Part shown: in pieces, positions 23,101-64,000 of the stretch | Numbering within the stretch: position 1 is the stretch's first letter | How the letters are laid out: every line of letters begins with the position of its first letter | Assembly: GCF_050717545.1 (NCBI RefSeq) | Contig: NZ_JBOITN010000045.1 | Span: forward strand, 3,561 to 67,560 | Length of the DNA: 64,000 nucleotides | Reading direction: 5' to 3' | Source: Clostridium sp. | Lineage (GTDB): Bacteria > Bacillota > Clostridia > Clostridiales > Clostridiaceae | Position numbers and translations under genes: made by a program | The notes under the pieces: generated by a model | Seen by the model: the letters and a program-made list of their open reading frames with translations, nothing else | Told to the model about the DNA's origin: nothing | Database searches by the model: none

Positions 23101-23631
23101 TTATTCCATAAGAAAATACCCTTCTTCTTTCGAAGTACCTATGGGCTCCCCTTTTGCTAGTTTAATGGCAAAAGCTGAAATTGTTCTTAAAGATTTATTT
23201 AGCCCGATGCCACCTTTATTAGGTGTTTCTATAATGCGAAGCTTCTTTCTAAAAGCCTCAGTACCTGTACTGTCTTTTGCCATAGCTGCAAAAGCTGGAA
23301 TATTGAGTTTTTCTTTGATGCTTAGAGCAAGCTCTCCACAACACTCTCCATATCTTTTGTAGTTTAATGCGGGTCCACAAATTACTACATCAGCATTAAA
23401 TTTCTTTATCATCTCGGTAATTTCTTCTATAGCTTTTTCCTTATTCTCTAGAAAATAATTATCTCCACATATTATGGTACCAACAATATCTCCACCATTT
23501 TTCATAGATATAGTTTTTAGTAACATTCCCATACCTACTGCTCCATTTTGAGATTGTGGCTGTATATCCATTCTTTCGTCACCACCAAGTCCTGCTTGTA
23601 CTTGATTGAGGAATTGCACCATTCGTATCAT
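23101..23631 (-). CDS. Stand-alone GrdB N-terminal-domain protein (glycine/sarcosine/betaine reductase component B-like, no selenocysteine half)
   Basis: VQFLNQVQAGLGGDE..., ICGDNYFLENKEKA..., ICGPALNYKRYG... and KLAKGEPIGTSKEEGY follow the N-terminal half of GrdB. Only 176 aa. Confidence 0.6.
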   Translation of the reverse strand: MIRMVQFLNQVQAGLGGDERMDIQPQSQNGAVGMGMLLKTISMKNGGDIVGTIICGDNYFLENKEKAIEEITEMIKKFNADVVICGPALNYKRYGECCGELALSIKEKLNIPAFAAMAKDSTGTEAFRKKLRIIETPNKGGIGLNKSLRTISAFAIKLAKGEPIGTSKEEGYFLME

Positions 23632-48220: not shown

Positions 48221-48844
48221 CTATATATTTTTAAGTTTTTCCTGCGTATCTTTTCTTAATCTAAATATTTTTTCAAGTTTTTCTCCAGCAACTTTTACTT
48301 GATCTACAGCGATTTGATTTTGTAACACGTCACCCTTTTTAAACAATTTTAGAACTTTAACAGTAGATGTTACTCTATACCCTAATCCTTCAAGTGGTTT
48401 TTTCATAGCCTCAGCAGTAAATCCCATATCTTCCTCATTATTTTGCTCACAAATAGCTATAACTACAGCATATTTTCCGCCTTTTGCTTCGTTAATGCTT
48501 GACCAAACAGAGCGATCATCTTCTGCAAAGACTTGAAAACAATAAAGTCTTTCAATAAAAGCTTTCATATCTGAAGTTATATTATAAAAATACGTTGGAG
48601 ATCCTAAAACAATAGCATCAGAATTTAAAATAAGTGGATATATTTTCTGCATATCATCCTTTATTACGCACTTATATGTGTCTTTGCATCCTTCACATCC
48701 CGTGCACCCGCTTATATTATAATCTCCTAGAAAAATCATCTCAGTATCAACACCTTTTGACTCCATTACTTTTAATGTTTGCTCTACTAAATATGATGTA
48801 TTACCATTTTTTCTCGTGCTTCCTACTATACCTAATACTTTCAT
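48221..48844 (-). CDS. Iron-sulfur flavoprotein (Isf-like NADPH-dependent FMN reductase family)
   Basis: FMN site GSTRKNGNT and compact Cys cluster CTGCEGCKDTYKC. The ATG at 48844 follows GGAGG by 7 nt. Confidence 0.75.
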   Translation of the reverse strand: MKVLGIVGSTRKNGNTSYLVEQTLKVMESKGVDTEMIFLGDYNISGCTGCEGCKDTYKCVIKDDMQKIYPLILNSDAIVLGSPTYFYNITSDMKAFIERLYCFQVFAEDDRSVWSSINEAKGGKYAVVIAICEQNNEEDMGFTAEAMKKPLEGLGYRVTSTVKVLKLFKKGDVLQNQIAVDQVKVAGEKLEKIFRLRKDTQEKLKNI

Positions 48845-48966
48845 TCTAAATCCTCCAAACACAATATATTTTATGTTACTTAAGAAAGCTATTCTTTAAA
48901 TAAATCTCCTTTTATTTTATCCCAAAATGTACATCATTACTACCTTTGAATTCATAAAACAAAAAA

Positions 48967-49005
48967 ATGATTAGAGATGTGAGTTTTACACACTTCTCCA
49001 ATCAT
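48967..49005 (-). terminator. Rho-independent terminator of the rubrerythrin gene
   Basis: 15-bp stem (one mismatch and one G-U in the minus-strand RNA) followed by TTTTTTTGTTTT. Confidence 0.75.
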
Positions 49006-49036
49006 TTTCTGAAAATTATTTTTTATAATATATCTA

Positions 49037-49627
49037 TTAATAGTTTTCTGCTAATATTTCAAAATAAGCTTTTGGATGAGCACAGGCTGGGCAAATTTCT
49101 GGTGCTTCTTTACCTTCAGAAATATATCCACAATTAGTGCACTTCCATAAAGTTTTTTCAGCTTTTTTAAATACAGTTCCATCTTCTATATTTTTAGCTA
49201 GTTTTATATATCTTTCTTCATGTTTTTTCTCAACCTCAGAAATTTTTGTATATACAAATGCAATGTCAGAAAAACCTTCTTCTTTTGCATCTTTTGCAAA
49301 TTGAGGATATAGCGTTGTCCATTCTTCATTCTCACCAGCCGCTGCTGCTAATAAATTTCCTTTTGTATCACCAAGGAAAACAGGATATCCTGCATCATTA
49401 ATAACAACTGCATCACCATTTAAATCACTGTTTGCTAAAAATTTAAAAAACCTTTCTGCATGTTCTTTCTCATTACCTGCTGTTTCTGTAAATATGTTCT
49501 GAATTTGCACGTAACCTTCTTTTTTAGCTATAGATGCATAAAAAGTATATCTATTTCTCGCTTGAGATTCTCCTGCAAAAGATTTTAAAAGATTTTCGGC
49601 TGTTTTTGTTCCTTTTAATTTTATCAT
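49037..49627 (-). CDS. rbr: Rubrerythrin
   Basis: Ferritin-like di-iron domain (ENLLKSFAGESQARNRY, EKEHAE, EKKHEE) and C-terminal rubredoxin-like CTNCG...CPAC. The ATG at 49627 follows GAGGAGG. Confidence 0.9.
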   Translation of the reverse strand: MIKLKGTKTAENLLKSFAGESQARNRYTFYASIAKKEGYVQIQNIFTETAGNEKEHAERFFKFLANSDLNGDAVVINDAGYPVFLGDTKGNLLAAAAGENEEWTTLYPQFAKDAKEEGFSDIAFVYTKISEVEKKHEERYIKLAKNIEDGTVFKKAEKTLWKCTNCGYISEGKEAPEICPACAHPKAYFEILAENY

Positions 49628-49706
49628 TTTGTCCTCCTCTATTTGCATATGTGTTTCTTTAAATATATTCCAAAATTAATAATTCTAGAATATATAATCC
49701 CACAAT

Positions 49707-50141
49707 TTAAAGTTTCTTCCCCATTCCGGAAACAATAATAAATTCTGAATCTATTTTATCTTCTGATTCCTTAATTACAGTACTATCACTTTCATCTTCG
49801 CGATCATCATTTTCTGCAGTGAATATTTTTTTAGTACCTATACCATCTTCTGATTCCTTATCTACCGCACTTTGATTTCCCCAATATTCTTCTGCTTCAT
49901 CTTCCATTATTTCAAGTCTAGTATAGTAATCAGGAAATTCAGTTAAATGTGCAAGTGCAATTTTACCTGTAAGTATTGGATCATTATTTGTAACATCTGT
50001 ATCTGGATCTGTTATACCGTGCTCAAGTTCAACCATCATTCCCATTCTAAATTGCTCTATATTAAATTTCGCCCAATTTATTCCAAGTTCCTCACCTATC
50101 TCTTTAGCTTGCTGACTAGTAAATATTTTTTCTTTTGACAT
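49707..50141 (-). CDS. Conserved hypothetical protein (VELEHG ... AHL.EFPDYY domain) with acidic C-terminal tail
   Basis: A domain pattern I recognise from many bacterial and phage hypothetical proteins, possibly DUF5661 (not certain). The ATG at 50141 follows GGAGGG. Confidence 0.5.
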   Translation of the reverse strand: MSKEKIFTSQQAKEIGEELGINWAKFNIEQFRMGMMVELEHGITDPDTDVTNNDPILTGKIALAHLTEFPDYYTRLEIMEDEAEEYWGNQSAVDKESEDGIGTKKIFTAENDDREDESDSTVIKESEDKIDSEFIIVSGMGKKL

Positions 50142-50333
50142 AATATCACCCTCCATTAAAATAATTGTATAATCTAAAATTATACTTTACATACTTAAGG
50201 AAAATTTAGAATATTCTATTTATATTATATCATGTTTATCATCATATTTCAACATTCATCGTCAGTTAATCGTATCTTTTTTCAATATTTTACATTTTTA
50301 TATGTCCTACAAATTAATTATAGGACATAATTT

Positions 50334-51746: not shown

Positions 51747-51954
51747 TATTTAATCCCTTCCTCTAACACTTAGTTATCACAAATTAGACTCTAATTTCAT
51801 ATTATGCATAACATTAAAAATATGTACCTTCCTCTTATAAATTCCTACTTTCTAACTTACAAATATTAAAATACATTTACCATTTTTTATAAACATGTTT
51901 CCTATTCCAATCCCTAGCATATTATAGACTGTAAGTTTATTTTAGGAGGATTAT

Positions 51955-53153: not shown

Positions 53154-54083
53154 TTATACTTTTAAATCTAGTATAACCTTTAGTTCTTCTAATTTAGTTT
53201 TAAAGTATGGTTCCCCCAAGTAATATCTTGTAAATATATTTATTCCTCCATCGATGCTTAGTGGCAACTTAGTTTCCAGGATCCAACGAACTAATGGAAA
53301 TGTAATATTTAGTGATGCAAGTTTATGATACTCTATCTCAGCATCCGTTAATCCATTGCCTCTAAAGCTATACAATATATCTAAATAATTTTTTATAGCT
53401 ACTTCCATAATATTATAACCAGACGCACCTGCTGACCCTGTATCTGGTCTATTAATTTCTCCACTCAAGATGCAGTAATTAGGATTAGATCGTAAAAGTT
53501 CAAGTTGGATATATATATGGTTAAGACTTGAGTATAAGAACTTCTCTTTTAGAGGTATTTTCTTATAGGCATCATTTTTCAAAACCATACCGGTAATCCA
53601 TCCTCCCGTCCCTGAATCTATCTGATAATCGCTCATACCACTACCACGATTTATAATTAGCGGGTGCCACTTCATAGATAAATACATTAGATCACAATCT
53701 CTATTAGCGTTAATCATATTAATTATCGCACTATAAACCCCTTCATTAAAAAAATCATCATCACCATGTAAATTAATATATTCTCCATTTGATATATCTA
53801 ACACCTTTTGTATATTTTTTGATACTCCTATATTCTCTTGATTTTTACAATATACTAAAGTATCATATTTCTCTTTGTATTCATCAATAATTATTGAAGT
53901 ATTATCTGTAGAAGCATTGTCACATACTACTACTTCAAATCTATAATTATTACCAACCTGAGAGTATATGTTCTCAAGTAGCTTTCTTAAAAACTCAGCC
54001 CGATTATATGTTGGAATACCTATAGTAAGCACAGGCCTTTTATTTAACTCTTTTACGTTTCCCTTGGTAGTGTCATTGCTCAT
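53154..54083 (-). CDS. GT2 glycosyltransferase (the intact copy of a tandem triplet)
   Basis: LTIGIPTYNR...VVVCDNASTDNT...LHGDDDF. AAGGAG RBS. Confidence 0.8.
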   Translation of the reverse strand: MSNDTTKGNVKELNKRPVLTIGIPTYNRAEFLRKLLENIYSQVGNNYRFEVVVCDNASTDNTSIIIDEYKEKYDTLVYCKNQENIGVSKNIQKVLDISNGEYINLHGDDDFFNEGVYSAIINMINANRDCDLMYLSMKWHPLIINRGSGMSDYQIDSGTGGWITGMVLKNDAYKKIPLKEKFLYSSLNHIYIQLELLRSNPNYCILSGEINRPDTGSAGASGYNIMEVAIKNYLDILYSFRGNGLTDAEIEYHKLASLNITFPLVRWILETKLPLSIDGGINIFTRYYLGEPYFKTKLEELKVILDLKV

Positions 54084-54096
54084 AAATTACTTCTCC

Positions 54097-54344
54097 TTAA
54101 ATAGTACATAACAATACTAATTTTAATAAACTTTTGATTTCATTTAGCTTTTGGTGGTAATATATTTCGCCTGAATAATATTTAGTATACGCTTTTTCAA
54201 GACCATCCATTTTAAAATAATACCTCTGCTTAATACTGCATCAATACTTGGAAAGATTATTGAACTAAGAACCTTATGTTTCTAAAAATGTAGCTCTATT
54301 AAAGGTTGGAATTCCTATAGTTAAAATCGGGATGTTATTATTCA
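54097..54344 (-). pseudogene. Decayed GT2 paralogue A (N-terminal 17 codons fused to a C-terminal remnant)
   Basis: MNNNIPILTIGIPTFNR then a stop after 23 codons. A downstream frame keeps KYYSGEIYYHQKLNEIKSLL, matching the intact C-terminus RYYLGEPYFKTKLEELKVIL. The catalytic core is deleted. Confidence 0.7.
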
Positions 54345-54376
54345 TGCCCTAATACTCCTTTTGAATCATCTATTTA

Positions 54377-55046
54377 TTATCTCTTTAATGCTAATATACT
54401 TCTTAGCACTGCTAACTTTTCCTCAAAATATTCTTCCCCAGAGTAATATAGCTTAAATAATTCTACTGAATTGTCTAAACTTAATGACATATTCGCATTA
54501 ATTACCCATCTTAAAAACGGGAAAAGCAAAGATAATAAAAAGTATTTCCGGAATTTTATCTCGGCACTTGTTAATCCATCGCCCTCAAAATTAGAAAGTA
54601 TATCTATATAATTTTCATAATAACTTGCATAACATTATATCCAGAAAACCCTGCCGAGGCACAATCATATCTTGGGATAGGTCCCCTTAGAACGCAATAG
54701 TTAACATTTTTAGTTGAATATACATATGATTCAAATCAGAATATAGAAACTTTTCTTTATCGTCAACTTTTTTATAACATCATTACATATAACCATCCCA
54801 GTAATACCACTAATGTTTTTAGCATCAACTATATAATTACTAAGCCCCGCTCCACGTTTAACGCTAAAAACATCATTAGCACCTGGCAGAAACATTACAT
54901 CACAATCACAATTTCCCTCAATCATATCTAGAATCATTACCTATTTGACTATAAACATTTTCAAGGCATTTACAAAGATACATCTCCCTATTAAAGGTTG
55001 GAATAGCTATAGTCAAAATTGGCCTTATTTTATTATTTTCATTCAT
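54377..55046 (-). pseudogene. Decayed GT2 paralogue B (internal deletion plus frameshifts)
   Basis: MNENNKIRPILTIAIPTFNREMYLCKCLENVYSQIGNDSRYD* lacks the DNASTD/DDD core. The next frame (listed ORF 54731-54937) matches residues about 118-185 of the intact copy. The C-terminal LYYSGEEYFEEKL is retained. Confidence 0.75.
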
Positions 55047-55082
55047 GGAACCATCCTCCATTTATAACATAGCAATCTTGTT

Positions 55083-56435
55083 TTATTTTTTACTTATATT
55101 TTTTAATATATATTCTTCGATATTGGATACCATATAATTTATCATATTTTCATTTATTCCTGGATAAACGCCTAACCAAAATGAATTAGTAGTAATTAAA
55201 TCTGTATTTTTAAGTTCTCCTACAATTCTATATGAATCTTTATTTTTTTTATATTCTTCAAATAATGGTTGCCTTGTAATGTTTCCTGCAAATAGCAACC
55301 TAGTTTGAATTCCTTTAGCCTCTAAATACTCAAGTAAATCCCTTCTATTTATAGATGAATCTTTAATTGTCATCAAAAAACCAAACCAACTAGGTTTAGC
55401 ATTTTTCTCAGCCTCAGGTAAAATTAAATATTTATCTAAATGCTTTAATTTGTTTTTTAGTAGTTCCCAATTCTCTATTCTTCTTTCTATAAATTCAGGT
55501 AACTTCTTTAACTGCGCGCACCCTATTGATGCTTGCATTTCTGTAACTTTCAAATTATATCCTAAATGTGAATAAATATATTTATGATCATAACCAAGAG
55601 GCATATCTCCGTATTTTATAGCAAACCTTTTTTTGCAAGTATTATCACACCCTGATTTACAATAACAATCCCTTCCCCAATCTCTAAAAGATTCTATTAT
55701 TCTACTTAACATAACACTATTTGTGTATACAGCACCCCCTTCGCCCATAGTAATATGATGCGGTGGATAAAAGCTTGAAGTCCCTATGTCTCCAATTGTT
55801 CCTGTATACTTTAATTCTCCTTTATATTCATATTGCGAACCCAGAGCATCGCAATTATCTTCTATTAACCATAAATTATTTTTATCACAAAATTCTTTAA
55901 CCCTTTTTAAATTAAAAGGATTACCTAGTGTATGAGCTATGAGAATGGCTTTAGTTTTACTTGATAATGCCTCTTCTAATAAATTAACATCAATATTGTA
56001 AGTTGGAAGTGTTATATCTACAAATACTGGCACTGCTCCATATTGAAGTATTGGAGCTACAGTAGTTGGAAAACCCGCTGCAACTGTTATAACTTCATCT
56101 CCTTTTTCTATTCTCCGTTCTTTTAATTTAGGGGAAGTAAGCGCCATAAATGCAAGAAGATTTGCTGATGACCCAGAATTAGTTAATGAACAATATTTCA
56201 CACCTAAAAACTGTGCAAACTCTTTTTCAAATTTGTCGCAGAATCTACCCGTTGTAAGCCAAAAATCAAGTGTAGCCTCAGTAAGGTTTATCATTTCGTC
56301 CTCATCAAAATATCTTCCTCCGTAGTTTATTTTGTTGCCTTCTTTCCACTCTTCTTTATTTTTAAAAACCTCATCATAATATTCCTTAACGTTTTCTAAT
56401 ATCTTTAGCCTTAATAAACTTTCTTTATTTGACAA
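55083..56435 (-). CDS. rfbH: CDP-6-deoxy-L-threo-D-glycero-4-hexulose 3-dehydrase (E1, RfbH/DdhC/AscC type)
   Basis: DegT-fold protein with FYPPHHITMGEGG (His replaces the Schiff-base Lys, the E1 hallmark) and Fe-S Cys cluster RDCYCKSGCDNTCKKRF. TTG start after AAGGAGG. Confidence 0.8.
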   Translation of the reverse strand: MSNKESLLRLKILENVKEYYDEVFKNKEEWKEGNKINYGGRYFDEDEMINLTEATLDFWLTTGRFCDKFEKEFAQFLGVKYCSLTNSGSSANLLAFMALTSPKLKERRIEKGDEVITVAAGFPTTVAPILQYGAVPVFVDITLPTYNIDVNLLEEALSSKTKAILIAHTLGNPFNLKRVKEFCDKNNLWLIEDNCDALGSQYEYKGELKYTGTIGDIGTSSFYPPHHITMGEGGAVYTNSVMLSRIIESFRDWGRDCYCKSGCDNTCKKRFAIKYGDMPLGYDHKYIYSHLGYNLKVTEMQASIGCAQLKKLPEFIERRIENWELLKNKLKHLDKYLILPEAEKNAKPSWFGFLMTIKDSSINRRDLLEYLEAKGIQTRLLFAGNITRQPLFEEYKKNKDSYRIVGELKNTDLITTNSFWLGVYPGINENMINYMVSNIEEYILKNISKK

Positions 56436-56474
56436 TAATCTGCCTCCTTAATCAATTTTTCTTAGTTAATTTTT

Positions 56475-57287
56475 TTATTCACTTGCTTCTGGAATATGTG
56501 TTTCATTTCCTATCCAAAATTCTGTCTCGCCAGAAGCATTTTCTTTTAGATAAACTGGTTGTTTTATTTTAATCTTTATATTCTCTGTTCTTTGATGATG
56601 TATTAAAAAAATATTAAATAATCGTTCACCTAAATATGCAAAATCCTTAACATTGGGATCAGGGTTTAGTCTCTTCTTAATTTCTCCAAAAATATCCATT
56701 ATCCAAGTCATATACTTATCAAATAAATCTCCTCGCATTATAAATAAATTAATATAATAAACTTCCGTGCTAAGCAAAGCTGTAAAACAATCTCCTTCAT
56801 AACTAGGATACTTTTCCTTAATAATTTCTAAAGCCGTATTTAAATATAAACCTTTATGCCACATATTGTGTTGAGTCCACATATTACCAAGTCCAAACAT
56901 TCTGAAATTTAACGATGTAGGTACTAATACATCACAATCTTCTAAAATATTCTTGAGACCTTCCTTATCCCAACCATATTTATCTATAACTTCACTAAGA
57001 TTATCAGTACCAGTTACATTATCTTTAAAGGATATATATCTTCTATATTGAAAAAATCCTACATACTTTTGTATTTTCATGTTTTTCCACACCCAATAGT
57101 AAGTTGAAAACTCAGCATATAGTGAATTTTCGCTAGCCATATTATCCCCTTCGTCAGAACATAATATGGTATAATCACCAGGTACAATTTCTCTTTTAGT
57201 ATATATAGGTGTAAATATTTCAGACTTTACCATTTTATAAGGTTTATGACTAATAACATATATATCTACTAATTCATTTAAATCCAT
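56475..57287 (-). CDS. DUF4422-family putative glycosyltransferase
   Basis: IYVISHKP..., YAEFSTYYWVWKN and FFQYRRY are DUF4422 signatures. 270 aa. Confidence 0.65.
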   Translation of the reverse strand: MDLNELVDIYVISHKPYKMVKSEIFTPIYTKREIVPGDYTILCSDEGDNMASENSLYAEFSTYYWVWKNMKIQKYVGFFQYRRYISFKDNVTGTDNLSEVIDKYGWDKEGLKNILEDCDVLVPTSLNFRMFGLGNMWTQHNMWHKGLYLNTALEIIKEKYPSYEGDCFTALLSTEVYYINLFIMRGDLFDKYMTWIMDIFGEIKKRLNPDPNVKDFAYLGERLFNIFLIHHQRTENIKIKIKQPVYLKENASGETEFWIGNETHIPEASE

Positions 57288-57349
57288 AGTTTCACCGCCC
57301 TTATTTTTTACCCTTCATTGAAAATCAATTTAATTATACGAACCAACCT

Positions 57350-58000
57350 TTAATTATAGTTTTTTATAAATATTAATCTATTTTCATCAAATCCATTTAT
57401 CGTATTTACAATTCCGCAATCGTGAACGCACCAAGGCGTAATTTGCTTAGGTACCACCACTTTATAATCCAGTTTTCTAAACTCCGCGCATTGCGACATA
57501 TCATAAAAATGCCAACTCTTAAATATATCTTCCCTCCAAGGAATATCATATTGCGTTATTATTATGAACCCATCAACCGCCGCTACCTCATCAAATGCAA
57601 ATTCGATTTCATTAAATTTAAGTAGTCCCATAATACCTGTATGACTCTCATATACCTCTCCAACAGTTTCAGAACTCTCCCACCATATTCCACTTTCCGG
57701 TATAGATTTAGCTCCACACATTCCAATAACACCTATATCGCCATCTTCAAACACTTTCAACATATCAAGTATAAAATTTCTATTTATAATAAATACGTCT
57801 TGATGGAGATATACTTTATATTTAGAATCAGAGCTAAACATGCACTTGTTATAAGCTTTAGTTAAATATTCTGCGTTTCTTACAGGAATTATCTCTATAT
57901 GAAATTCATTAGGTATTATCAAGTTATTTATATACAATTCACATTTTTTAAATACTACTTCATCATTTACTGCTATTATAAAACTTACCTTATTATTCAC
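57350..58000 (-). CDS. Glycosyltransferase-like protein (Glyco_tranf_2_5-like)
   Basis: SFIIAVNDE..., YLHQDVFI and a short 216-aa GT-A-like fold pattern. GTG start after GGGAGG. Confidence 0.55.
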   Translation of the reverse strand: MNNKVSFIIAVNDEVVFKKCELYINNLIIPNEFHIEIIPVRNAEYLTKAYNKCMFSSDSKYKVYLHQDVFIINRNFILDMLKVFEDGDIGVIGMCGAKSIPESGIWWESSETVGEVYESHTGIMGLLKFNEIEFAFDEVAAVDGFIIITQYDIPWREDIFKSWHFYDMSQCAEFRKLDYKVVVPKQITPWCVHDCGIVNTINGFDENRLIFIKNYN

Positions 58001-58084
58001 AACAAAGTCCTCCCATATTTCACTTTAATTTTATTTGAGGAGAAAATATTAACCTTAAACTATCTTTGCAATTATCGCCACCTA

Positions 58085-59845
58085 TTATGACTTATACAAA
58101 TCAATTATCATATTTTCTTTAAACTCATTTCTATTTATTAGGGGTTCTTGATCTTCTATTGGTTTGCCTATACCAAGCTTTGGAATTACATAAGTTATAT
58201 TTTTAAGTTCCACCTCTATGACATAGCTTTCATCATCATTCAATCTTCCTTTTAATTCATTTATCTGATTTTCATTACTTATTTTAAATGACTTTATTCC
58301 ATAAGCTTCACTGATTTTCATAAAGTTTGGAACAGAATATCCATCTATAGTTCCACTATAATTTGATTCAAAATACATTTCTTGAAAATGTCTAATCATA
58401 CCTAAAGCATTATTGTTCATGATGATTATCTTTATAGGTATCTTTTCCCGGGCAATAGTTTGTAGCTCTTGGATATTCATTTGAATTCCACCATCACCAG
58501 TAATCACAACTACTTTATAATTAGGTTTAGCATGCCATGCTCCTATAGCTGCTGGCAGACCAAATCCCATAGGTCCCATTCCACCCGCGTTTAATAATCT
58601 TTGATTCTTAAGAAGCCTCAAAGATTGAGATGCCCAAATTTGGTTTTGACCTATATCTAAACATATTATAGAATTTGGATTTAGAATTCCACTTATTCTA
58701 TTCATAAATTCATTAGGGTCTATTTCATTTATATCTGTATTAGCTTTAAATGATGGATACATTTTTTTATAACTACTTATTTTATTTATCCAAGAACTGA
58801 AATTAAACTTATAATCAAGTTCTTCTATACCTTTATTTAATTTTTTTAGAAATAGAAATAAATCACACTCTATAGTTAAATCTTCTTTCACTTTAATATT
58901 AAGTTCATTTTTATCTATATCTACATGGACTATTTTAGCCTGCCTTGCAAAACTGTCAGTTATAGAACTTGTCTGTCTGGTCGTTAATCTAGAACCTAAA
59001 ACTATTAATAAATCACAATTAGCCACTGCTAAATTTGAATACCTATTTCCATAAGCTCCCATGTACCCTACGTAACACTTATGCCCATGATTTACACTGT
59101 CTATCCCCATTAAAGTGCTAACTACAGGGATACCCGTTATGTCTATAAATTTCTCCAAACTTCCAACTGCCTTTGCGAGCCTAATTCCTCCACCCGCTAG
59201 TATCACAGGTCTTTCACTTTCCTTTATTAAGTCTATTACTCTACTGACATCTTCTATATTTACTTCTTTCTTTATTGCACTTTTATATTCTTCTGATTCA
59301 TAAAAACCTATTAGCTCGCGTGGGTTAATTTCAGCCCTTTGAATGTTCATAGGTATATCTAATAAAACAGGTCCCGGCCTACCATCTTTTGCTATATAAA
59401 ATGCCTTTTCTAAGCAATATTTTATTTTTTCAGGAGAACTAATCATAACTGCATACTTTGTTATAGGTTTTATTATGCTTACTATATCAGTCTCTTGAAA
59501 TCCTTCTTGTCTTATTTCAATTGATCTCTTATATTCATAGGTATTAACTTGACCTGTTATATACAAACATGGAATAGAATCAAAATAAGCACTTCCTATA
59601 CCTGTAATAAGGTTTGTCGCTCCTGGTCCACTAGTAGCTGTGCATACTCCTATATTACCGCTAACCCTTGCATAACCCTCAGCGGCAAATGCTGAAGCCT
59701 GTTCATGATAATTTGATATGAATTTAATTCCATCTGCTTTATATATTGAATCAACAAAATGAGTTATAGCTCCACCTTGATATCCAAAAATCGTCGTTAC
59801 ACCGTTATCTTTTAGAAACTCTACAACATAATCTGATAACTTCAT
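58085..59845 (-). CDS. ThDP-dependent acetolactate-synthase-like enzyme, YerE-like candidate sugar-branching carboligase
   Basis: N-terminal Pyr domain (FGYQGGAITHF...HEQASAFAAEGYAR...TSGPGATNL) and ThDP motif GDGGIQMNIQEL...IMNNN. The ATG at 59845 follows AGGTGG by 8 nt. It sits among CDP-deoxyhexose genes. Confidence 0.6.
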   Translation of the reverse strand: MKLSDYVVEFLKDNGVTTIFGYQGGAITHFVDSIYKADGIKFISNYHEQASAFAAEGYARVSGNIGVCTATSGPGATNLITGIGSAYFDSIPCLYITGQVNTYEYKRSIEIRQEGFQETDIVSIIKPITKYAVMISSPEKIKYCLEKAFYIAKDGRPGPVLLDIPMNIQRAEINPRELIGFYESEEYKSAIKKEVNIEDVSRVIDLIKESERPVILAGGGIRLAKAVGSLEKFIDITGIPVVSTLMGIDSVNHGHKCYVGYMGAYGNRYSNLAVANCDLLIVLGSRLTTRQTSSITDSFARQAKIVHVDIDKNELNIKVKEDLTIECDLFLFLKKLNKGIEELDYKFNFSSWINKISSYKKMYPSFKANTDINEIDPNEFMNRISGILNPNSIICLDIGQNQIWASQSLRLLKNQRLLNAGGMGPMGFGLPAAIGAWHAKPNYKVVVITGDGGIQMNIQELQTIAREKIPIKIIIMNNNALGMIRHFQEMYFESNYSGTIDGYSVPNFMKISEAYGIKSFKISNENQINELKGRLNDDESYVIEVELKNITYVIPKLGIGKPIEDQEPLINRNEFKENMIIDLYKS

Positions 59846-59857
59846 AGTATTTACCAC

Positions 59858-60796
59858 CTACCTATAAAATTGTAAATTATCTCTAAACCAATTTATTGTA
59901 TTATTAAGTCCATCATTTATTTCAACATTAGGTTTCCAGTTTAGTTTTTCATAAACCTTTTTATTATCACTAACCCACATTCGAGGTTCATATTGCCTAT
60001 TCGGATCATCCTGCCAGTTAATTTTTACTTCCTTACCAATTAGGTTAACTATATTACATGTAATTTCTTCAGTTGTATATTGCAATCCACTTCCTATATT
60101 AAATGTTTCTCCATAACTATTAAATAACTTGCTTGTAGCTAAGTAAGCTTCAATTACATCATCAATAAATATAAAGTCTCTAACAGAGTCCATGCGAGAT
60201 AATTTAAGCTCTTTTCCAAAAAGACATGAGGTAATAACTGTTGGTATTAATCTGGTTTTAGCATCATAATAACCGTAGGGTGAAAATAATCTAAGAGTTA
60301 CTAGAGGCAATTTGTTTATTTTTGCATATGTGCTGCATAAAGTAGTACCAGCTACCTTACTTGCACCATACATATTATTTGGTGTTAGGTTCATATCCTC
60401 GCACATTGGCTTTAACTTTTCCCCATATTCTGAGGAACTGCTAGTATTCACAAACATTTCTAATCCCTTTTTAGAAAATTCACGAAACAAATTAAACGTT
60501 CCAATAACATTTGTATTTATAACTTCATCTACTTTGCTTTGATAATGATATCCTCCATAAGTAGCTAAATGGTAAACACTATCTATACATATAATCCTAG
60601 CCAATTTAGATATTTCATCACTATTGAGTAAATCTACATTATGAATTTCTATATCCTTTAATACATCTTGTAGTCTCCATAAATTAGTTTTATCCCTTGT
60701 TATTATATGAATCTTATTACCATCTTTTAGTAACTTTCTAGCTAAACAAGATCCTACAAATCCACTAGCACCTGTAATTAAAACGTCCTTTCCCAT
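59858..60796 (-). CDS. NAD(P)-dependent extended-SDR sugar epimerase/reductase
   Basis: VLITGASGFVGS Rossmann motif and YGASK catalytic motif. 312 aa. One nucleotide separates it from the upstream stop. Confidence 0.8.
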   Translation of the reverse strand: MGKDVLITGASGFVGSCLARKLLKDGNKIHIITRDKTNLWRLQDVLKDIEIHNVDLLNSDEISKLARIICIDSVYHLATYGGYHYQSKVDEVINTNVIGTFNLFREFSKKGLEMFVNTSSSSEYGEKLKPMCEDMNLTPNNMYGASKVAGTTLCSTYAKINKLPLVTLRLFSPYGYYDAKTRLIPTVITSCLFGKELKLSRMDSVRDFIFIDDVIEAYLATSKLFNSYGETFNIGSGLQYTTEEITCNIVNLIGKEVKINWQDDPNRQYEPRMWVSDNKKVYEKLNWKPNVEINDGLNNTINWFRDNLQFYR

Positions 60797-60797
60797 A

Positions 60798-61880
60798 TCA
60801 AACTCCCACGTGATCTGTTTTACTTACGTAATTTTCTATTTGATTAACACATGTTTCAAACATATCTTTATTATTTGATTGTTTATACCAATCTACAGTA
60901 AGTTTAATTGCTTCTTCTACAGTGAGTTTCGGTGACCATTTTAAATAGGTCTTTGCCTTAGTACAATCTAATTTTAATAAATTCGCTTCATGAGGTGCAT
61001 TTTCTTGCGATGTATCTAAACACTTGCCACTTCCCCATTCCATAATTATTCCATCTACAATGCGACCTACCGATACTATAGAATCTCCATCTGGTCCAAA
61101 ATTCCAACCGCTACAATAACTCTCACCATCTTCATACATTTTGGAGGCAAGTTGTAGATATCCACTTAATGGCTCAAGTACATGCTGCCAAGGTCTAATT
61201 GCCTTTGGATTTCTAAGTTGAATATCTTTATTCTCTTTTAAGGCCCTTATGCAATCAGGGATTATTCTATCTCTTGACCAGTCCCCACCCCCAATAACGT
61301 TTCCTGCACGAGCAGAAGCTATGGCTTTACCGTGGAATTTATAATTCTTAGGATTAATAAACGAATTTCTATATGAATCTATCAGTATTTCACAACACCC
61401 TTTACTAGAACTGTAAGGATCATACCCGCCCATTGGATCATCTTCTCTATATCCCCATATCTGTTCTATATTTTTATAACACTTATCTGTAGTTATCATA
61501 ACGGTGACCTTAACACTCCCTGAGTTTTTAATACATTCTAGAACATTTAGGGTCCCCATTACATTTGTTTCATAGGTGTCCTTTGGATTTACGTAAGACT
61601 CTTTTACTAATGCTTGAGCTGCTAGGTGAAAAACAATCTCTGGCTTATATATATTAAAAACTTCTATAAGATTTTTATACTCTCTAATATCTCCTCTAAT
61701 ATCTGTAACTCTATCCTTTAATTTACTAACTACAAAATTATCATCTTTTGTATATGGGTCAAGCCCATATCCTATAACTGTAGCTCCTAATTTCTTAAGC
61801 CAAATAGAGAGCCACGAGCCTTTAAACCCTGTATGACCAGTAATTAAAACTCTTTTGCCCTTATAGAAGTTGTTAAACAT
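60798..61880 (-). CDS. rfbG: CDP-glucose 4,6-dehydratase
   Basis: FYKGKRVLITGHTGFKGSWLS and YSSSK. The ATG at 61880 lies 2 nt after the rfbF stop; the listed extension to 61922 overlaps rfbF. Confidence 0.85.
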   Translation of the reverse strand: MFNNFYKGKRVLITGHTGFKGSWLSIWLKKLGATVIGYGLDPYTKDDNFVVSKLKDRVTDIRGDIREYKNLIEVFNIYKPEIVFHLAAQALVKESYVNPKDTYETNVMGTLNVLECIKNSGSVKVTVMITTDKCYKNIEQIWGYREDDPMGGYDPYSSSKGCCEILIDSYRNSFINPKNYKFHGKAIASARAGNVIGGGDWSRDRIIPDCIRALKENKDIQLRNPKAIRPWQHVLEPLSGYLQLASKMYEDGESYCSGWNFGPDGDSIVSVGRIVDGIIMEWGSGKCLDTSQENAPHEANLLKLDCTKAKTYLKWSPKLTVEEAIKLTVDWYKQSNNKDMFETCVNQIENYVSKTDHVGV

Positions 61881-61882
61881 AT

Positions 61883-62653
61883 CTACTTCTTTACACTCCA
61901 TAAATGCTCTCCTTTGTCCCATAACTTATTTACGGCTTGAACATCTTTTATAGTATCTATAGCAACCCAAAAGCCATTATGCTCATAAACCGCAAGTTCA
62001 TTATCCTTTGCGAGATTTTTAATGGGTTCTTGTTCAAAAAAACAATCTTCACTAGGTAAATAGTCAAAAACATCTTTATTTAATACCATAAATCCCCCGT
62101 TGACCAAGTCCTTTAAAATAGGTTTTTCTTTAAACGACTTAATAATTCCGTCTTCAACCTCCATAACCCCAAAAGGAGAAATAGGATTTACTCCTGTAAG
62201 CGTTCCAATCCTACCTTTTTTCCTATGAAATTCTAAGAGTGCTAAGATATTTACGTTGCTTAATCCATCACCATAAGTAAACATAAATTCCTTACCATCT
62301 ATATACTTCTCTACCTGTTTTAACCTTCCACCAGTAAGCGTTTCAGTACCAGTGTCAACAATGGTTATATTCCATTTTTCTTCTTCCTTTGTATGATATT
62401 CTAATTTTCTATCACCGCTTAAATGCATTGTAAAGTCATTATTTCTCCAGTACATATCCATAAAATATTGCTTTATCATTTCTCCTTTGTACCCAACACA
62501 TAAAATAAAATCATTAAATCCGTAACTTGAATATATTTTCATTATATGCCACAAAATAGGTTTACCGCCAATCTCAACTAGAGGTTTAGGACGATACTCT
62601 GTTTCTTCGCGCATACGTGTTCCTTTACCACCACAAAGTATTACTACTTTCAT
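61883..62653 (-). CDS. rfbF: Glucose-1-phosphate cytidylyltransferase
   Basis: MKVVILCGGKGTRMREETEYRPKPLVEIGGKPILWHIM is the RfbF signature. 256 aa. Confidence 0.9.
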   Translation of the reverse strand: MKVVILCGGKGTRMREETEYRPKPLVEIGGKPILWHIMKIYSSYGFNDFILCVGYKGEMIKQYFMDMYWRNNDFTMHLSGDRKLEYHTKEEEKWNITIVDTGTETLTGGRLKQVEKYIDGKEFMFTYGDGLSNVNILALLEFHRKKGRIGTLTGVNPISPFGVMEVEDGIIKSFKEKPILKDLVNGGFMVLNKDVFDYLPSEDCFFEQEPIKNLAKDNELAVYEHNGFWVAIDTIKDVQAVNKLWDKGEHLWSVKK

Positions 62654-62703: not shown

Positions 62704-62731
62704 ATACTTTATGTGGAATGCAAATAGGAAG
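62704..62731 (-). promoter_or_regulatory. Candidate sigma-K-type (late mother-cell) promoter of the sugar operon
   Basis: The minus strand reads AC-N17-CATAAAGTA (consensus AC-N16/17-CATANNNTA). It lies about 50 nt upstream of rfbF. Confidence 0.3.
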
Positions 62732-62901
62732 TGCCTATTTATGAAGATGTTTTATAATTATTTATATACTTACATGAATTTAAATAATTTACCACCAAAT
62801 TAATTTTTAGTATATTGTTTTATTTGTAGTATTCCTATCAATCAATGTTGTATCTCTTAACCACTATATACTTTTTATTAAAAATATTATCCTTATGTAA
62901 A

Positions 62902-62968: not shown

Positions 62969-64000
62969 CTAATCCAAACGAATAATAGTTACTTGAGCTC
63001 CTATTGAAGGCGCTAAGTCAGTTGTTAATGGAATAGCTGAATTGTTTTGTAAGGTAATTACGTCTCCAGCTACAAGTGATATAATAGCGTCTCCAGAAAC
63101 TTCTCCAGTAGAAACTAAAACTGAAACTGTAGTAGATGCATCCACTGTTCCATTTATTGCAATTGAGATTGCAGAACCTACTCCACTAGTAATGTTTACA
63201 CTATAATAAATTTGGTAATTCCCAGTGGTTGTAACTGTTATTGTAGTTGTTCCCGCTGTATGAGTAATATTTGATAAAGGTCCATTATTACTGAAAGGCA
63301 CATCAACACCACCGATTACTGTTGCATCAGCTATTATAGCAAGTTGATAAACATAGCCGAACGCAGCCAGTCCCGCTCCAGTTGCTCCTGTAGTTCCTGT
63401 AGAACCGGTTACCCCCGTAACTCCTGTTACTCCAGTAGTTCCTGTTACTCCAGTTGCTCCGGTAAAACCTGTAGGTCCAATTAAACTAGAACCTGTATCT
63501 AGCCAACAAGAATCAAGTAGAAGCACCGGTGCTGGTAATATTGTTGTTCTATAACCTACAATGAAACTAGCTGGACTTGTTGCGCTTGCCCATCCAACTG
63601 CAAATGACAAGTTAGCAATTGTATTTCCAGAACTAGATATATAGGTGGTGCCTGTAGAACTTGTATCAATACCGATTAGGCCTTTCCCAGCAGTGTTTTG
63701 GACATTATTTCCTACAACCTGTATAAACTTGAAAATACTAAGATTAGGACTATTTAGTAGGACTGGTACGTTACCTTCATTTATTGTGGTATTGTTATTA
63801 ATATACAATTGGAAATTAAAACCAATAAATTCCTCGATGACTACCAAGTGTCTGAGAGTAAATGGAGAAGCTACTTGGCTGTTATTGTCTATTAATAACT
63901 GACCTTGAAGAGTCCCTCCAGCAACTGAAATATTTGTAATATCAATAAATCTACAATTCGTAGGTCCTGAGTCAGATACAAATGTGTTATTGGCAATAAT
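62969..64000 (-). CDS. Collagen-like (GXT-repeat) protein with BclA-type C-terminal domain; 5' end lies beyond the window
   Basis: 12 G-X-Y triplets, then a beta-rich C-terminal domain of about 130 aa like BclA-C. The frame stays open from 63847 to 64000 (51 further codons, no stop), so the listed TTG start is an artefact. Confidence 0.8.
   Translation of the reverse strand: MIANNTFVSDSGPTNCRFIDITNISVAGGTLQGQLLIDNNSQVASPFTLRHLVVIEEFIGFNFQLYINNNTTINEGNVPVLLNSPNLSIFKFIQVVGNNVQNTAGKGLIGIDTSSTGTTYISSSGNTIANLSFAVGWASATSPASFIVGYRTTILPAPVLLLDSCWLDTGSSLIGPTGFTGATGVTGTTGVTGVTGVTGSTGTTGATGAGLAAFGYVYQLAIIADATVIGGVDVPFSNNGPLSNITHTAGTTTITVTTTGNYQIYYSVNITSGVGSAISIAINGTVDASTTVSVLVSTGEVSGDAIISLVAGDVITLQNNSAIPLTTDLAPSIGAQVTIIRLD
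63374..63478 (-). repeat. Collagen-like triplet repeat (coding)
   Basis: GPT GFT GAT GVT GTT GVT GVT GVT GST GTT GAT GAG. The DNA has 9-bp periodicity (ggtaacnccagt-like units). Confidence 0.9.

Follow-up and report, generated by a model that had tools for sequence, protein, structure and literature searches.

A predicted yersiniose-type CDP-sugar operon in a psychrophilic Clostridium, probably for spore glycans

Introduction

Yersiniose A is synthesized in Yersinia pseudotuberculosis O:6/O:12 by the ddhDABC-yerE-yerF pathway (PMC5399914, PMC9306805). After branching at C4, the sole reducible ketone remaining in the yersiniose scheme is the branch carbonyl (PMC9306805). The Clostridium locus described here shares with this pathway CDP activation, DdhA/RfbF, DdhB/RfbG and DdhC/E1, as well as a YerE-clade ThDP carboligase that consists of a single protein and is encoded beside a reductase gene. 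However, it has no DdhD/E3, wzx, wzy or O-antigen context; its host is a Gram-positive spore-former, its glycosyltransferases (GTs) are soluble, the operon follows a sigma-K-type promoter consensus, and its SDR is likened to YerF by position only. Other YerE-like carboligases include PpYerE (5ahk), ErwE, MyGE and JanthE. Donor preference varies widely among these enzymes, and ErwE refuses pyruvate (PMC9306805).

A catalytic His and four Cys are the defining features of E1 (PMC8987622). SpnQ, the spinosyn TDP-sugar 3-dehydrase, is an E1-type enzyme that uses PMP and [2Fe-2S] without a dedicated E3, general ferredoxin or flavodoxin reductase pairs serving instead (PMC8987622). The substrate of SpnQ is a TDP-2,6-dideoxy sugar of secondary metabolism, whereas the Clostridium protein is a close E1 orthologue.

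Dedicated rare-sugar operons for O-glycans on the collagen-like exosporium protein BclA are represented by the B. anthracis anthrose and B. cereus cereose/cillose operons (PMC12357932). Their sugars carry a C-methyl derived from SAM or are acylated amino sugars; in the Clostridium locus, by contrast, a ThDP enzyme would attach the branch, a two-carbon unit, at C4 of a 3,6-dideoxy sugar. Cereose is reportedly also CDP-activated and C-branched. In C. difficile, the collagen-like exosporium glycoprotein BclA3 has a glycosyltransferase gene, encoding SgtA, nearby (PMC7157674), and bclA expression is sigma-K-dependent (PMC3789822). In the accessible parts of these two articles, that locus is described without a rare-sugar pathway.

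Operon organization and CDP-sugar enzymes

The 64,000-nucleotide stretch that was analysed is called the window. A sequence-only reading had placed seven genes (RfbF, RfbG, an SDR, a ThDP enzyme, two GT-like proteins and RfbH/E1) on the minus strand between 55083 and 62653; all seven were found at those coordinates, and the family profiles agreed, with RfbF, RfbG and RfbH scoring above curated equivalog cut-offs (Table 1). The likely start of rfbG was the ATG at 61880; the frame reaching 61922 overlaps the end of rfbF. The SDR gene followed rfbG after 1 nt. For the ThDP gene, an ATG start gave 586 aa and a 12-nt gap, and a GTG start gave 590 aa and no gap. The co-directional unit probably runs on beyond rfbH, via decayed GT2 remnants, to an intact GT2 gene, whose product was 78% identical to its counterpart in locus L001.

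Table 1. Features of the Clostridium glycosylation island and its flank (positions in the window)
Feature	Position	Strand	Support
GT2-SAM methyltransferase fusion, 470 aa	50334-51746	-	PF00535 + Methyltransf_31/23/11
Second island promoter motif copy, TTCCTATT-N11-CATATTATA	51899-51926	+	29 nt upstream of GT2-TPR gene
GT2-TPR glycosyltransferase, 357 aa	51955-53028	+	PF00535 + TPR repeats
GT2 glycosyltransferase, 309 aa, soluble	53154-54083	-	PF00535 E = 3e-21
GT2 paralogue(s), decayed remnants, pseudogene	54097-55061	-	Three-frame fragments matching intact 300-aa GT2 of L001
RfbH/DdhC/E1, PMP- and [2Fe-2S]-dependent CDP-4-keto-6-deoxyglucose 3-dehydrase	55083-56435	-	NF011936 719 bits, cut-off 423
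DUF4422 GT-like protein, 270 aa	56475-57287	-	E = 1.7e-47; without membrane segment
PF13712 GT-like protein, 216 aa	57350-58000	-	E = 2.6e-79; without membrane segment
YerE-like ThDP-dependent carboligase, 586 aa	58085-59845	-	All three TPP_enzyme domains; best PDB match 5ahk
Extended SDR, 312 aa	59858-60796	-	PF01370 E = 2e-49
RfbG/DdhB, CDP-glucose 4,6-dehydratase	60798-61880/61922	-	TIGR02622 equivalog 502.6 bits, cut-off 278.45
RfbF/DdhA, glucose-1-phosphate cytidylyltransferase	61883-62653	-	TIGR02623 equivalog 326.5 bits, cut-off 300.25
Sigma-K-type promoter consensus AC-N17-CATAAAGTA, containing TTCCTATT box	62705-62732	-	52 nt upstream of rfbF
Collagen-like gene with BclA_C head	62972-64000	-	3' complete, 5' end past window; PF18573 76.9 bits, cut-off 38

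E1/RfbH matched the Y. pseudotuberculosis E1 crystal structure 3bcx with 542 bits and retained SFYPPHH with the catalytic His227 and the [2Fe-2S] cysteines Cys195/257/259/267, the residues that define E1. An E3/DdhD reductase was found neither in the window nor in any related locus, indicating that the E1 step would need electrons from another reductase. The SDR carried GxxGxxG and Y143xxxK motifs. It had no close structure, the closest solved relatives being UDP-GlcA epimerase and UXS at about 105 bits. In the Firmicutes loci L001, L085-L087 and L089-L094, its gene immediately preceded that of the ThDP enzyme, and this adjacency in loci carrying both argues for coupled steps; the SDR is a candidate for the side-chain ketoreductase, its likeness to YerF being one of position only. 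The window contained no aldolase or dehydrogenase genes that would supply longer 2-keto acid donors, unlike the erw cluster.

Clade placement of the ThDP enzyme

Among PDB entries, the ThDP enzyme matched PpYerE with 434.8 bits and any AHAS with at most 363.7 bits; it was 43% identical to PpYerE over the full length and 33-35% identical to E. coli IlvI and IlvB. A neighbour-joining tree was built from 99 sequences comprising the query, its Firmicutes hits, PpYerE, L002-L008, 73 AHAS loci and E. coli IlvI, IlvB and Gcl. The group containing the query, the Firmicutes hits, PpYerE and L002-L008 was separated from AHAS, IlvI, IlvB and Gcl in 100/100 bootstraps, showing that the ThDP protein, as judged by sequence, is a member of the YerE-like clade and not an anabolic acetolactate synthase, clade membership being anchored on PpYerE. 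This comparison with YerE-type and IlvB-type sequences favoured the earlier claim of a YerE-like enzyme. PpYerE is the best solved relative and falls in the same clade; however, the query lay in a separate Firmicutes-rich subclade, and its donor and acceptor are predictions.

An IlvH/IlvN neighbour was present at 44 of the 73 AHAS loci and at no YerE-side locus, and no small regulatory subunit gene (IlvN) was seen near the query gene. RfbH, by contrast, was absent from the surroundings of all 73 AHAS loci but encoded near five of seven YerE-side genome loci (L004-L008, the L008 match being weak at 27% over 275 aa). Six columns that discriminate the clades were all YerE-type in the query (K106, D249, Y265, L287, F487 and K556), with F487 standing where AHAS has its specificity Trp. 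The AHAS-invariant Gly and His were replaced, and the Trp, His and Phe signature residues of AHAS were absent; the query and PpYerE share the F-for-W, Y-for-H and K-for-G changes relative to AHAS. TIGR00118 scored 530.8 bits, just below its cut-off of 538.35. All 112 plasmid matches had at most 38.7% identity, and the annotated entries among the matches listed were named ilvB or acetolactate synthase.

Genomic context and promoter motifs

The RfbF-RfbG-SDR-ThDP-RfbH core was found in C. lacusfryxellense, C. psychrophilum, C. bowmanii, C. estertheticum and C. gasigenes, in two Paenibacillus species and in Psychrobacillus, and was partly visible in Romboutsia, where a Spore_exo_CotA gene adjoins the cluster. 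In Psychrobacillus (L093), the five genes were flanked by a NeuB-type nonulosonate pathway on one side and an MptE/Maf-like gene on the other, a context that suggests flagellin glycosylation. Cellulosilyticum (L095) carried aminotransferases and an acetyltransferase in place of the SDR, indicating that branch chemistry differs among relatives. The genes for the GT2-TPR protein, a candidate protein-directed GT, and for the GT2-methyltransferase fusion were kept in L001, L085, L086 and L090. None of the 11 island proteins scored, including the visible part of the collagen-like protein, had a clear membrane-spanning segment. Domain searches of the window revealed no flippase, polymerase, initiating phosphoglycosyltransferase or lipid-carrier export genes in the island, and the window held no flagellin gene.

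The operon starts 315 nt downstream of the collagen/BclA_C gene, whose stop is at 62969. Its frame stayed open as far as position 64000 with no in-frame stop; a 292-aa 'TTG' ORF considered as the gene was an artefact, the frame continuing open to the window end. The neighbour had been read as a BclA-type GXT collagen protein. The GXT triplets and the BclA_C domain bore this out, but the stalk consisted of only 12 triplets (63371-63478), and the visible N-terminal ~170 aa (173 aa) had no Pfam match and were not BclA-like. Homologues aligned to the C-terminal half only. The protein differs from C. difficile BclA3 in combining a BclA_C head and a short stalk with an unrelated N-terminal region. 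GXT collagen genes were present within 10 kb at 5/8 assessable Firmicutes loci, compared with 0/73 control loci (1.27 Mb), and recurred in the Clostridium and Paenibacillus clusters. No collagen gene was found within the 7-10 kb flanks in C. lacusfryxellense and C. gasigenes, and BclA_C domains occur in non-spore-forming bacteria too.

The promoter motif ahead of rfbF was kept in L001, L086, L090 and L091 within an otherwise divergent intergenic region. The TTCCTATT-N11-CATATTATA form occurred just twice in the window, against an expectation of none from shuffled sequence, and the copy ahead of the GT2-TPR gene was matched at the same position in L001 and L086. AC-N16-17-CATANNNTA lay 41-145 nt upstream of the first operon gene at 8/12 Firmicutes loci from four lineages (expectation 0.0115 per 200-nt window); the Psychrobacillus locus had no such motif. 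Only 11 of the 212 ORFs in those loci had a sigma-K-type motif upstream, and each of these was the first gene of the operon, a glycosyltransferase gene of the island or a collagen-like gene. In C. difficile, sigma-K has a matching consensus, and bclA1-3 belong to its regulon (PMC3789822). Window-wide, the bare motif was no more frequent than by chance.

Discussion

The most likely product of the core operon is a yersiniose-type sugar, a 3,6-dideoxy-4-C-branched hexose activated with CDP. RfbF would supply CDP-glucose, from which RfbG would form CDP-4-keto-6-deoxyglucose; E1/RfbH would then remove the 3-OH via PMP and [2Fe-2S], supplied with two electrons, as SpnQ is, by a general ferredoxin or flavodoxin system. 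The YerE-like enzyme would decarboxylate a 2-keto acid and transfer the acyl unit to C4 of CDP-4-keto-3,6-dideoxyglucose, and the donor is taken to be pyruvate, since the window has no aldolase genes that would provide longer ones. The adjacent SDR may, given its position, reduce the branch carbonyl to a 1-hydroxyethyl group. The soluble PF13712, DUF4422, GT2, GT2-TPR and GT2-methyltransferase proteins would transfer and elaborate the sugar. The acceptor would most likely be a mother-cell protein made late in sporulation under sigma-K, and the GXT collagen-like predicted spore-surface proteins encoded beside the island are the leading candidates. On balance, we favour the reading of the locus as a glycosylation island of a psychrophilic Clostridium of the C. 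estertheticum / C. lacusfryxellense group that places a yersiniose-type sugar on a spore-surface protein.

It is highly improbable that the sugar operon just happens to house an ordinary large subunit of biosynthetic acetolactate synthase as its ThDP protein. The near-threshold TIGR00118 score fits such an enzyme, and the orthologues P0014, P0045 and P0049 bear the NCBI name 'biosynthetic-type acetolactate synthase large subunit'. However, the bootstrap-supported split from AHAS, the missing small-subunit gene, the substituted Gly, His and specificity Trp and the closer identity to PpYerE all argue otherwise, and in several genera the gene is inherited together with those for RfbF, RfbG and RfbH. 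A different CDP-sugar is a doubtful alternative: the SDR could be a 4-reductase/epimerase giving a plain 3,6-dideoxyhexose, or the ThDP enzyme could take a longer or functionalised 2-keto acid or another keto-sugar acceptor. The epimerases and decarboxylases nearest to the SDR, its purely positional kinship with YerF, the variable donors of YerE-like enzymes, including the rejection of pyruvate by ErwE, and the Cellulosilyticum arrangement would be compatible with this. Against it stand the SDR-ThDP adjacency, the branch carbonyl as the only ketone left after C4 branching (PMC9306805) and the lack of the longer-donor aldolase/dehydrogenase genes of the erw cluster.

Alternatively, the pathway could be as predicted but serve a polymer of vegetative cells (secondary cell-wall polysaccharide, S-layer glycan, capsule or flagellin), with the collagen neighbour coincidental. 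We consider this unlikely, although the flagellin-glycosylation signature around the Psychrobacillus core, the collagen-free flanks in C. lacusfryxellense and C. gasigenes and the BclA_C domains of bacteria without spores point that way. The sigma-K-type consensus preceded the operon in four Firmicutes lineages, and its only other occurrences in those loci were before island GT genes and a collagen gene; collagen genes recurred at the Firmicutes loci and at none of the controls, and the CotA exosporium gene adjoins the Romboutsia cluster. Further, the window lacked flippase, polymerase, initiating transferase and flagellin genes, and all GTs were soluble. The spore-surface link proposed by the sequence-only reading is thus stronger than from collagen adjacency alone, with recurring collagen neighbours and the promoter consensus in its favour and the two collagen-free Clostridium flanks against it. 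The statement that a branched dideoxyhexose on a clostridial surface would be new needs qualifying, as 2024 work is cited in PMC12247030.

With this operon, the yersiniose-type pathway would have a Firmicutes member whose product probably goes to spore glycans. Two-carbon-branched dideoxy sugars of this kind are rare and have so far been known from Gram-negative cell walls.

Composition of the operon

The sequence-only reading had described a tightly packed seven-gene unit on the minus strand, running from 62653 to 55083, and the ORF map and curated models bore out both the packing and the gene identities (see table). The unit probably does not end at rfbH as supposed, since an intact GT2 gene lies further along in the same direction. 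Between the two were frame-shifted, decayed remnants of one or two GT2 paralogues, and an intact 300-aa gene occupied the corresponding place in C. lacusfryxellense. Close homologues identified this species, C. frigoris, C. bowmanii, C. estertheticum and C. psychrophilum as the nearest named relatives of the window, which comes from a Clostridium MAG.

No clear hydrophobic span was found in the 11 island proteins scored, the highest score belonging to the visible part of the collagen-like protein. Genes for a flippase, a polymerase, an initiating phosphoglycosyltransferase or a flagellin were not found in the window. Soluble GTs together with the missing export machinery fit direct cytoplasmic glycosylation of a protein.

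Two genes elsewhere in the window were also recorded. One encoded a 635-aa fusion of an acyl-CoA dehydrogenase, an ETF-alpha FAD-binding domain and a C-terminal rubredoxin. The other, a 176-aa ORF within a cellobiose-type PTS operon, matched GRDB, the model for glycine reductase selenoprotein B, over its first half alone (positions 2-171 of 347); the homologue may be truncated, or the gene may contain an in-frame UGA codon for selenocysteine.

Positions of features in the window and in related loci
Feature	Position	Strand	Evidence or remark
RfbF	61883-62653	minus	TIGR02623, 326.5 bits (cut-off 300.25)
RfbG	60798-61880/61922	minus	TIGR02622, 502.6 bits (cut-off 278.45)
Extended SDR, 312 aa	59858-60796	minus	PF01370, E = 2.1e-49
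ThDP enzyme, 586 aa	58085-59845	minus	three TPP_enzyme domains
PF13712 GT-like	57350-58000	minus	E = 2.6e-79
DUF4422	56475-57287	minus	E = 1.7e-47
RfbH/E1	55083-56435	minus	NF011936, 719 bits (cut-off 423)
GT2 remnants	54097-55061	minus	
Intact GT2 gene	53154-54083	minus	
Collagen/BclA_C gene	62972-64000, gene end 62969	minus	12 GXT triplets; PF18573, 76.9 bits (cut-off 38)
Sigma-K-type consensus AC-N17-CATAAAGTA	62705-62732	minus	52 nt upstream of rfbF
TTCCTATT box	62705-62730	minus	before rfbF
TTCCTATT box	51899-51926	plus	before GT2-TPR gene
TTCCTATT box in relatives	L001 7116-7141, 19358-19385; L086 14971-14998; L091 2306-2331		
DUF5661, rubrerythrin and FMN_red genes	48221-50156	minus	FMN_red at 48221-48862
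FMN_red gene, C. gasigenes	L087 20922-21671		end of cluster
Psychrobacillus sp. cluster	L093 1-21767		
Cellulosilyticum sp. I15G10I2 cluster	L095 8098-17372		
Spore_exo_CotA gene, Romboutsia sp.	L094 9498-10382		PF28051
635-aa fusion gene	14497-16404	minus	
176-aa GRDB-like ORF	23101-23631	minus	

Assignment of the ThDP enzyme

All three domains of the ThDP enzyme fold (TPP_enzyme_N, M and C) were found at E <= 1e-38, and the cofactor motif GDGG-X24-NN started at residue 450. An anabolic acetolactate synthase was considered for this protein, since the IlvB equivalog model scored 530.8 bits, only 7.5 below its cut-off of 538.35, and the database orthologues P0014, P0045 and P0049 (C. estertheticum, C. 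gasigenes) carry the NCBI name 'biosynthetic-type acetolactate synthase large subunit'. The best solved-structure match was 5ahk at 434.8 bits, any AHAS (acetohydroxyacid synthase) reaching at most 363.7. We take 5ahk to be PpYerE, the YerE homologue from Pseudomonas protegens that accepts ketones. This identity is supported by native residue 479 of the 5ahk sequence, recovered from the alignment as Val, because it agrees with the described PpYerE variants V479G/A (PMC12247030).

An NJ tree was built from the query, 14 database homologues, 80 genome loci, E. coli IlvI, IlvB and Gcl, and PpYerE, the one characterised YerE homologue anchoring the YerE-like clade. The genome loci came from a profile scan of genome contigs with a conserved peptide, ATSGPGA[TL]N, that is common to all AHAS; the matches listed were mostly true ilvB, included none from Clostridium relatives, Yersinia or Pectobacterium, and provided 73 AHAS-side loci as a control set. 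The tree split the query, all Firmicutes homologues, PpYerE and seven genome loci (L002-L008) from the 73 control loci and the three E. coli proteins, and this split was recovered in 100 of 100 bootstraps. An IlvH/IlvN homologue adjoined 44 of the 73 AHAS-side loci and none on the YerE side. Conversely, five of the seven genome loci on the YerE side had RfbH nearby (the match in L008 being weak, 27% over 275 aa), and none of the 73 did.

Six alignment columns separated the clades, and the query had the YerE-type residue at all six (K106, D249, Y265, L287, F487 and K556, against G, G, H, F, W and M in AHAS). The AHAS Trp at the column of F487 is presumably the acceptor-specificity residue. Identity was 43% to PpYerE, 33% to IlvI and 35% to IlvB. 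In a plasmid tblastn with the ThDP enzyme, all 112 matches were at most 38.7% identical, and the annotated ones among those listed were ilvB/acetolactate synthase.

The clade split, the neighbouring genes, the signature columns and the identities ruled out an anabolic acetolactate synthase and, as the sequence-only reading had proposed, place the enzyme by sequence in the YerE-like clade. Public-record annotation of this family is inconsistent, some orthologues being named ilvB. The predicted activity is acyl transfer from a 2-keto acid onto a CDP-keto-sugar; RfbF, RfbG and RfbH, the genes for CDP-4-keto-3,6-dideoxyglucose, are in the same operon.

E1 and its electron supply

The window E1 (RfbH/DdhC 3-dehydrase) matched the crystallised Y. 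pseudotuberculosis enzyme 3bcx at 542 bits. Its His227 (SFYPPH-H227-ITMGEGG), which replaces the aminotransferase catalytic Lys, aligned with E1 His220, and the H220K mutant entry 3bb8 had Lys at this position. The [2Fe-2S] cysteines were kept (Cys195, Cys257, Cys259 and Cys267, in the aligned motifs DNCDALG and RDCYCKSGCDNTC). His for Lys and the four-Cys [2Fe-2S] motif are the defining features of E1 (PMC8987622).

The window had been read as encoding the yersiniose enzyme set. RfbF, RfbG, E1 and the YerE-like enzyme held up, but E3 (DdhD/AscD reductase) was found neither in the window nor in relatives. E3/DdhD combines a ferredoxin and an FNR domain. No Fer2 or FNR-type protein occurred among the 49 window ORFs scanned, and an E3-type reductase was likewise absent from the gene tables of L001 of C. 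lacusfryxellense and L085-L095, with precomputed Pfam for eleven Firmicutes loci, and from the 10 neighbouring ORFs scanned in the YerE-side loci L002-L004, L006 and L007, so that the E3-less layout seems to be the rule outside Enterobacterales. A precedent for an E1 without E3 is SpnQ, which is served by general ferredoxin or flavodoxin reductase pairs (PMC8987622).

The island was followed by genes for DUF5661, for rubrerythrin and for an FMN_red/flavodoxin-fold protein bearing a Cys-rich motif, and the C. gasigenes cluster also ended in an FMN_red gene. The FMN_red protein of the window could be an electron donor for the E3-less E1 or part of an unrelated oxidative-stress module; because the rubrerythrin gene adjoins it, its role as an E3 substitute is left as an idea only.

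SDR and predicted product

In L001, L085-L087 and L089-L094, all Firmicutes loci, the gene for the 312-aa SDR immediately preceded that for the ThDP enzyme, and a Ryanbacteria locus had a 39%-identical copy two genes from its ThDP gene. The nearest solved relatives of the SDR scored only about 105 bits, and the homologue search gave generic names. After C4 branching, the side-chain carbonyl is the sole ketone left to reduce (PMC9306805). From the gene position and this chemistry, we infer that the SDR is a candidate YerF-type reductase of the C4 acetyl branch. The erw cluster carries aldolase/dehydrogenase genes for longer donors (PMC9306805); none were present here, which points to pyruvate as the default donor. 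In our view, a CDP-activated, ThDP-branched 3,6-dideoxy sugar is the probable product of the operon. The predicted yersiniose-type product is 3,6-dideoxy-4-C-(1-hydroxyethyl)-D-xylo-hexose.

Sigma-K-type promoter consensus upstream of the operon

The sigma-K consensus was taken from C. difficile (-35 AC, -10 CATA---TA, spacing 16-17 nt; PMC3789822), in which sigma-E and sigma-K have the same -10 element and differ at -35 (ATA vs AC), and in which bclA1-3 are sigma-K dependent (PMC3789822). An exact match lay upstream of rfbF, in a block conserved among three species while the rest of the intergenic region was divergent. In eight of 12 Firmicutes loci the first gene of the operon was preceded by such a consensus at a distance of 41-145 nt, whereas 0.0115 matches would be expected in a window of 200 nt. 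Conserved or independently present, the consensus was seen in four lineages (the C. estertheticum complex, C. gasigenes, Paenibacillus and Cellulosilyticum). Only 11 of 212 ORFs of at least 150 aa had the motif upstream: the eight operon first genes, two island GTs and one collagen-like gene, the 654-aa one of P. oryzisoli. Window-wide, the bare pattern was not enriched over shuffled sequence. The match is thus still only a consensus match, and its weight comes from position, conservation and recurrence alone.

The window held two copies, and no more, of a second element, the box TTCCTATT-N9-11-CATANNNTA; shuffled sequence was expected to give none. Among 93 loci it recurred only in L001, L086 and L091, each time at the homologous place. 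Standing 9-11 nt before the CATA---TA element, TTCCTATT may extend the promoter or be the site of a further regulator. As a GerE binding site it was dropped, being only a near match to the GerE consensus.

Collagen-like genes and variant clusters

The frame of the collagen-like gene upstream of the operon had no stop up to base 64000, showing that the gene is cut by the window and that its N-terminus lies outside; a 292-aa ORF starting at TTG was rejected as an artefact. The gene had been called BclA-type. The BclA_C head and the GXT triplets agreed with this, but the stalk was short and the visible 170 aa upstream of it were unlike BclA, having no Pfam match and not being common to BclA homologues. 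Homologues of the protein included some named B. cereus exosporium leader peptide-containing or cell surface glycoproteins; BclA_C domains were also found in bacteria that do not form spores.

GXT collagen genes lay within 10 kb in five of the eight loci with enough flank to judge, two further loci being cut by contig ends. These five were this window, C. psychrophilum (1507 aa, 320 triplets), C. estertheticum (at least 54 triplets), and Paenibacillus sp. LMG 31461 and P. oryzisoli (two genes each); C. lacusfryxellense, C. gasigenes and Psychrobacillus had none. Runs of eight or more GXT triplets were absent from the 73 AHAS control loci (1.27 Mb).

In Psychrobacillus sp., the RfbH-RfbF-RfbG-SDR-ThDP core lay between a NeuB-type nonulosonic acid pathway and a 929-aa MptE/Maf-like gene, and neither a sigma-K motif nor a collagen gene was found at this locus. 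The core probably serves flagellin there, and this NeuB/Maf context without the motif suggests that the target is lineage-dependent.

The Cellulosilyticum cluster encoded RfbF, RfbG, a YerE-like enzyme, an acetyltransferase, two aminotransferases, RfbH and a GT2. A sigma-K-type motif was present 61 nt upstream, and no SDR adjoined. Its replacement by the aminotransferases and acetyltransferase suggests that the branch is aminated and N-acetylated, and that branch chemistry varies as well. In Romboutsia sp., a Spore_exo_CotA gene adjoined the GT2 genes of the cluster, with an IS66 transposase fragment at the other end.

Discussion

To our knowledge, published YerE-type chemistry is confined to Gram-negative LPS and mycobacterial glycolipids. 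In actinomycete antibiotics, a two-component enzyme takes the place of the YerE type (PMC4753412). The window pathway would work like that for yersiniose A (ddhDABC-yerE-yerF; PMC5399914, PMC9306805), but it has no E3 and a different setting. What is new is the Firmicutes host and a likely spore-surface, sigma-K-controlled use; by sequence, the enzymes themselves appear to be clear orthologues.

Collagen regions of BclA in B. anthracis and B. cereus carry the rare-sugar O-glycans anthrose and cereose (PMC12357932), and C. difficile BclA3 is glycosylated by SgtA (PMC7157674). Taken together, a branched-sugar operon for spore glycans is the best explanation and one we regard as somewhat favoured; whether the operon serves spore-surface glycoproteins in this particular organism we judge to be evenly balanced. 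A tentative wider model, which we hold to be slightly less likely than not, covers Firmicutes that form spores (the C. estertheticum complex, Paenibacillus and possibly others). In this model, a mother-cell sigma-K promoter would drive the YerE-type pathway, E1 would have no dedicated E3 and would be supplied with electrons by the general ferredoxin or flavodoxin pool of the anaerobe, and Thr-rich collagen-like proteins of the spore surface would come to carry a two-carbon-branched 3,6-dideoxy octose.

The six alignment columns tell YerE-like enzymes from ilvB, a name that some of their orthologues bear in public records, and the spore-surface hypothesis can be put to a direct test through the recurrent sigma-K-type promoter. 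If it is true, ThDP-dependent C-acyl sugar branching would spread from Gram-negative O-antigens to Gram-positive spore protein glycans. The sugar would be the third rare spore-specific one, after anthrose and cereose, and spores of the C. estertheticum meat-spoilage group would gain a candidate antigen or marker.
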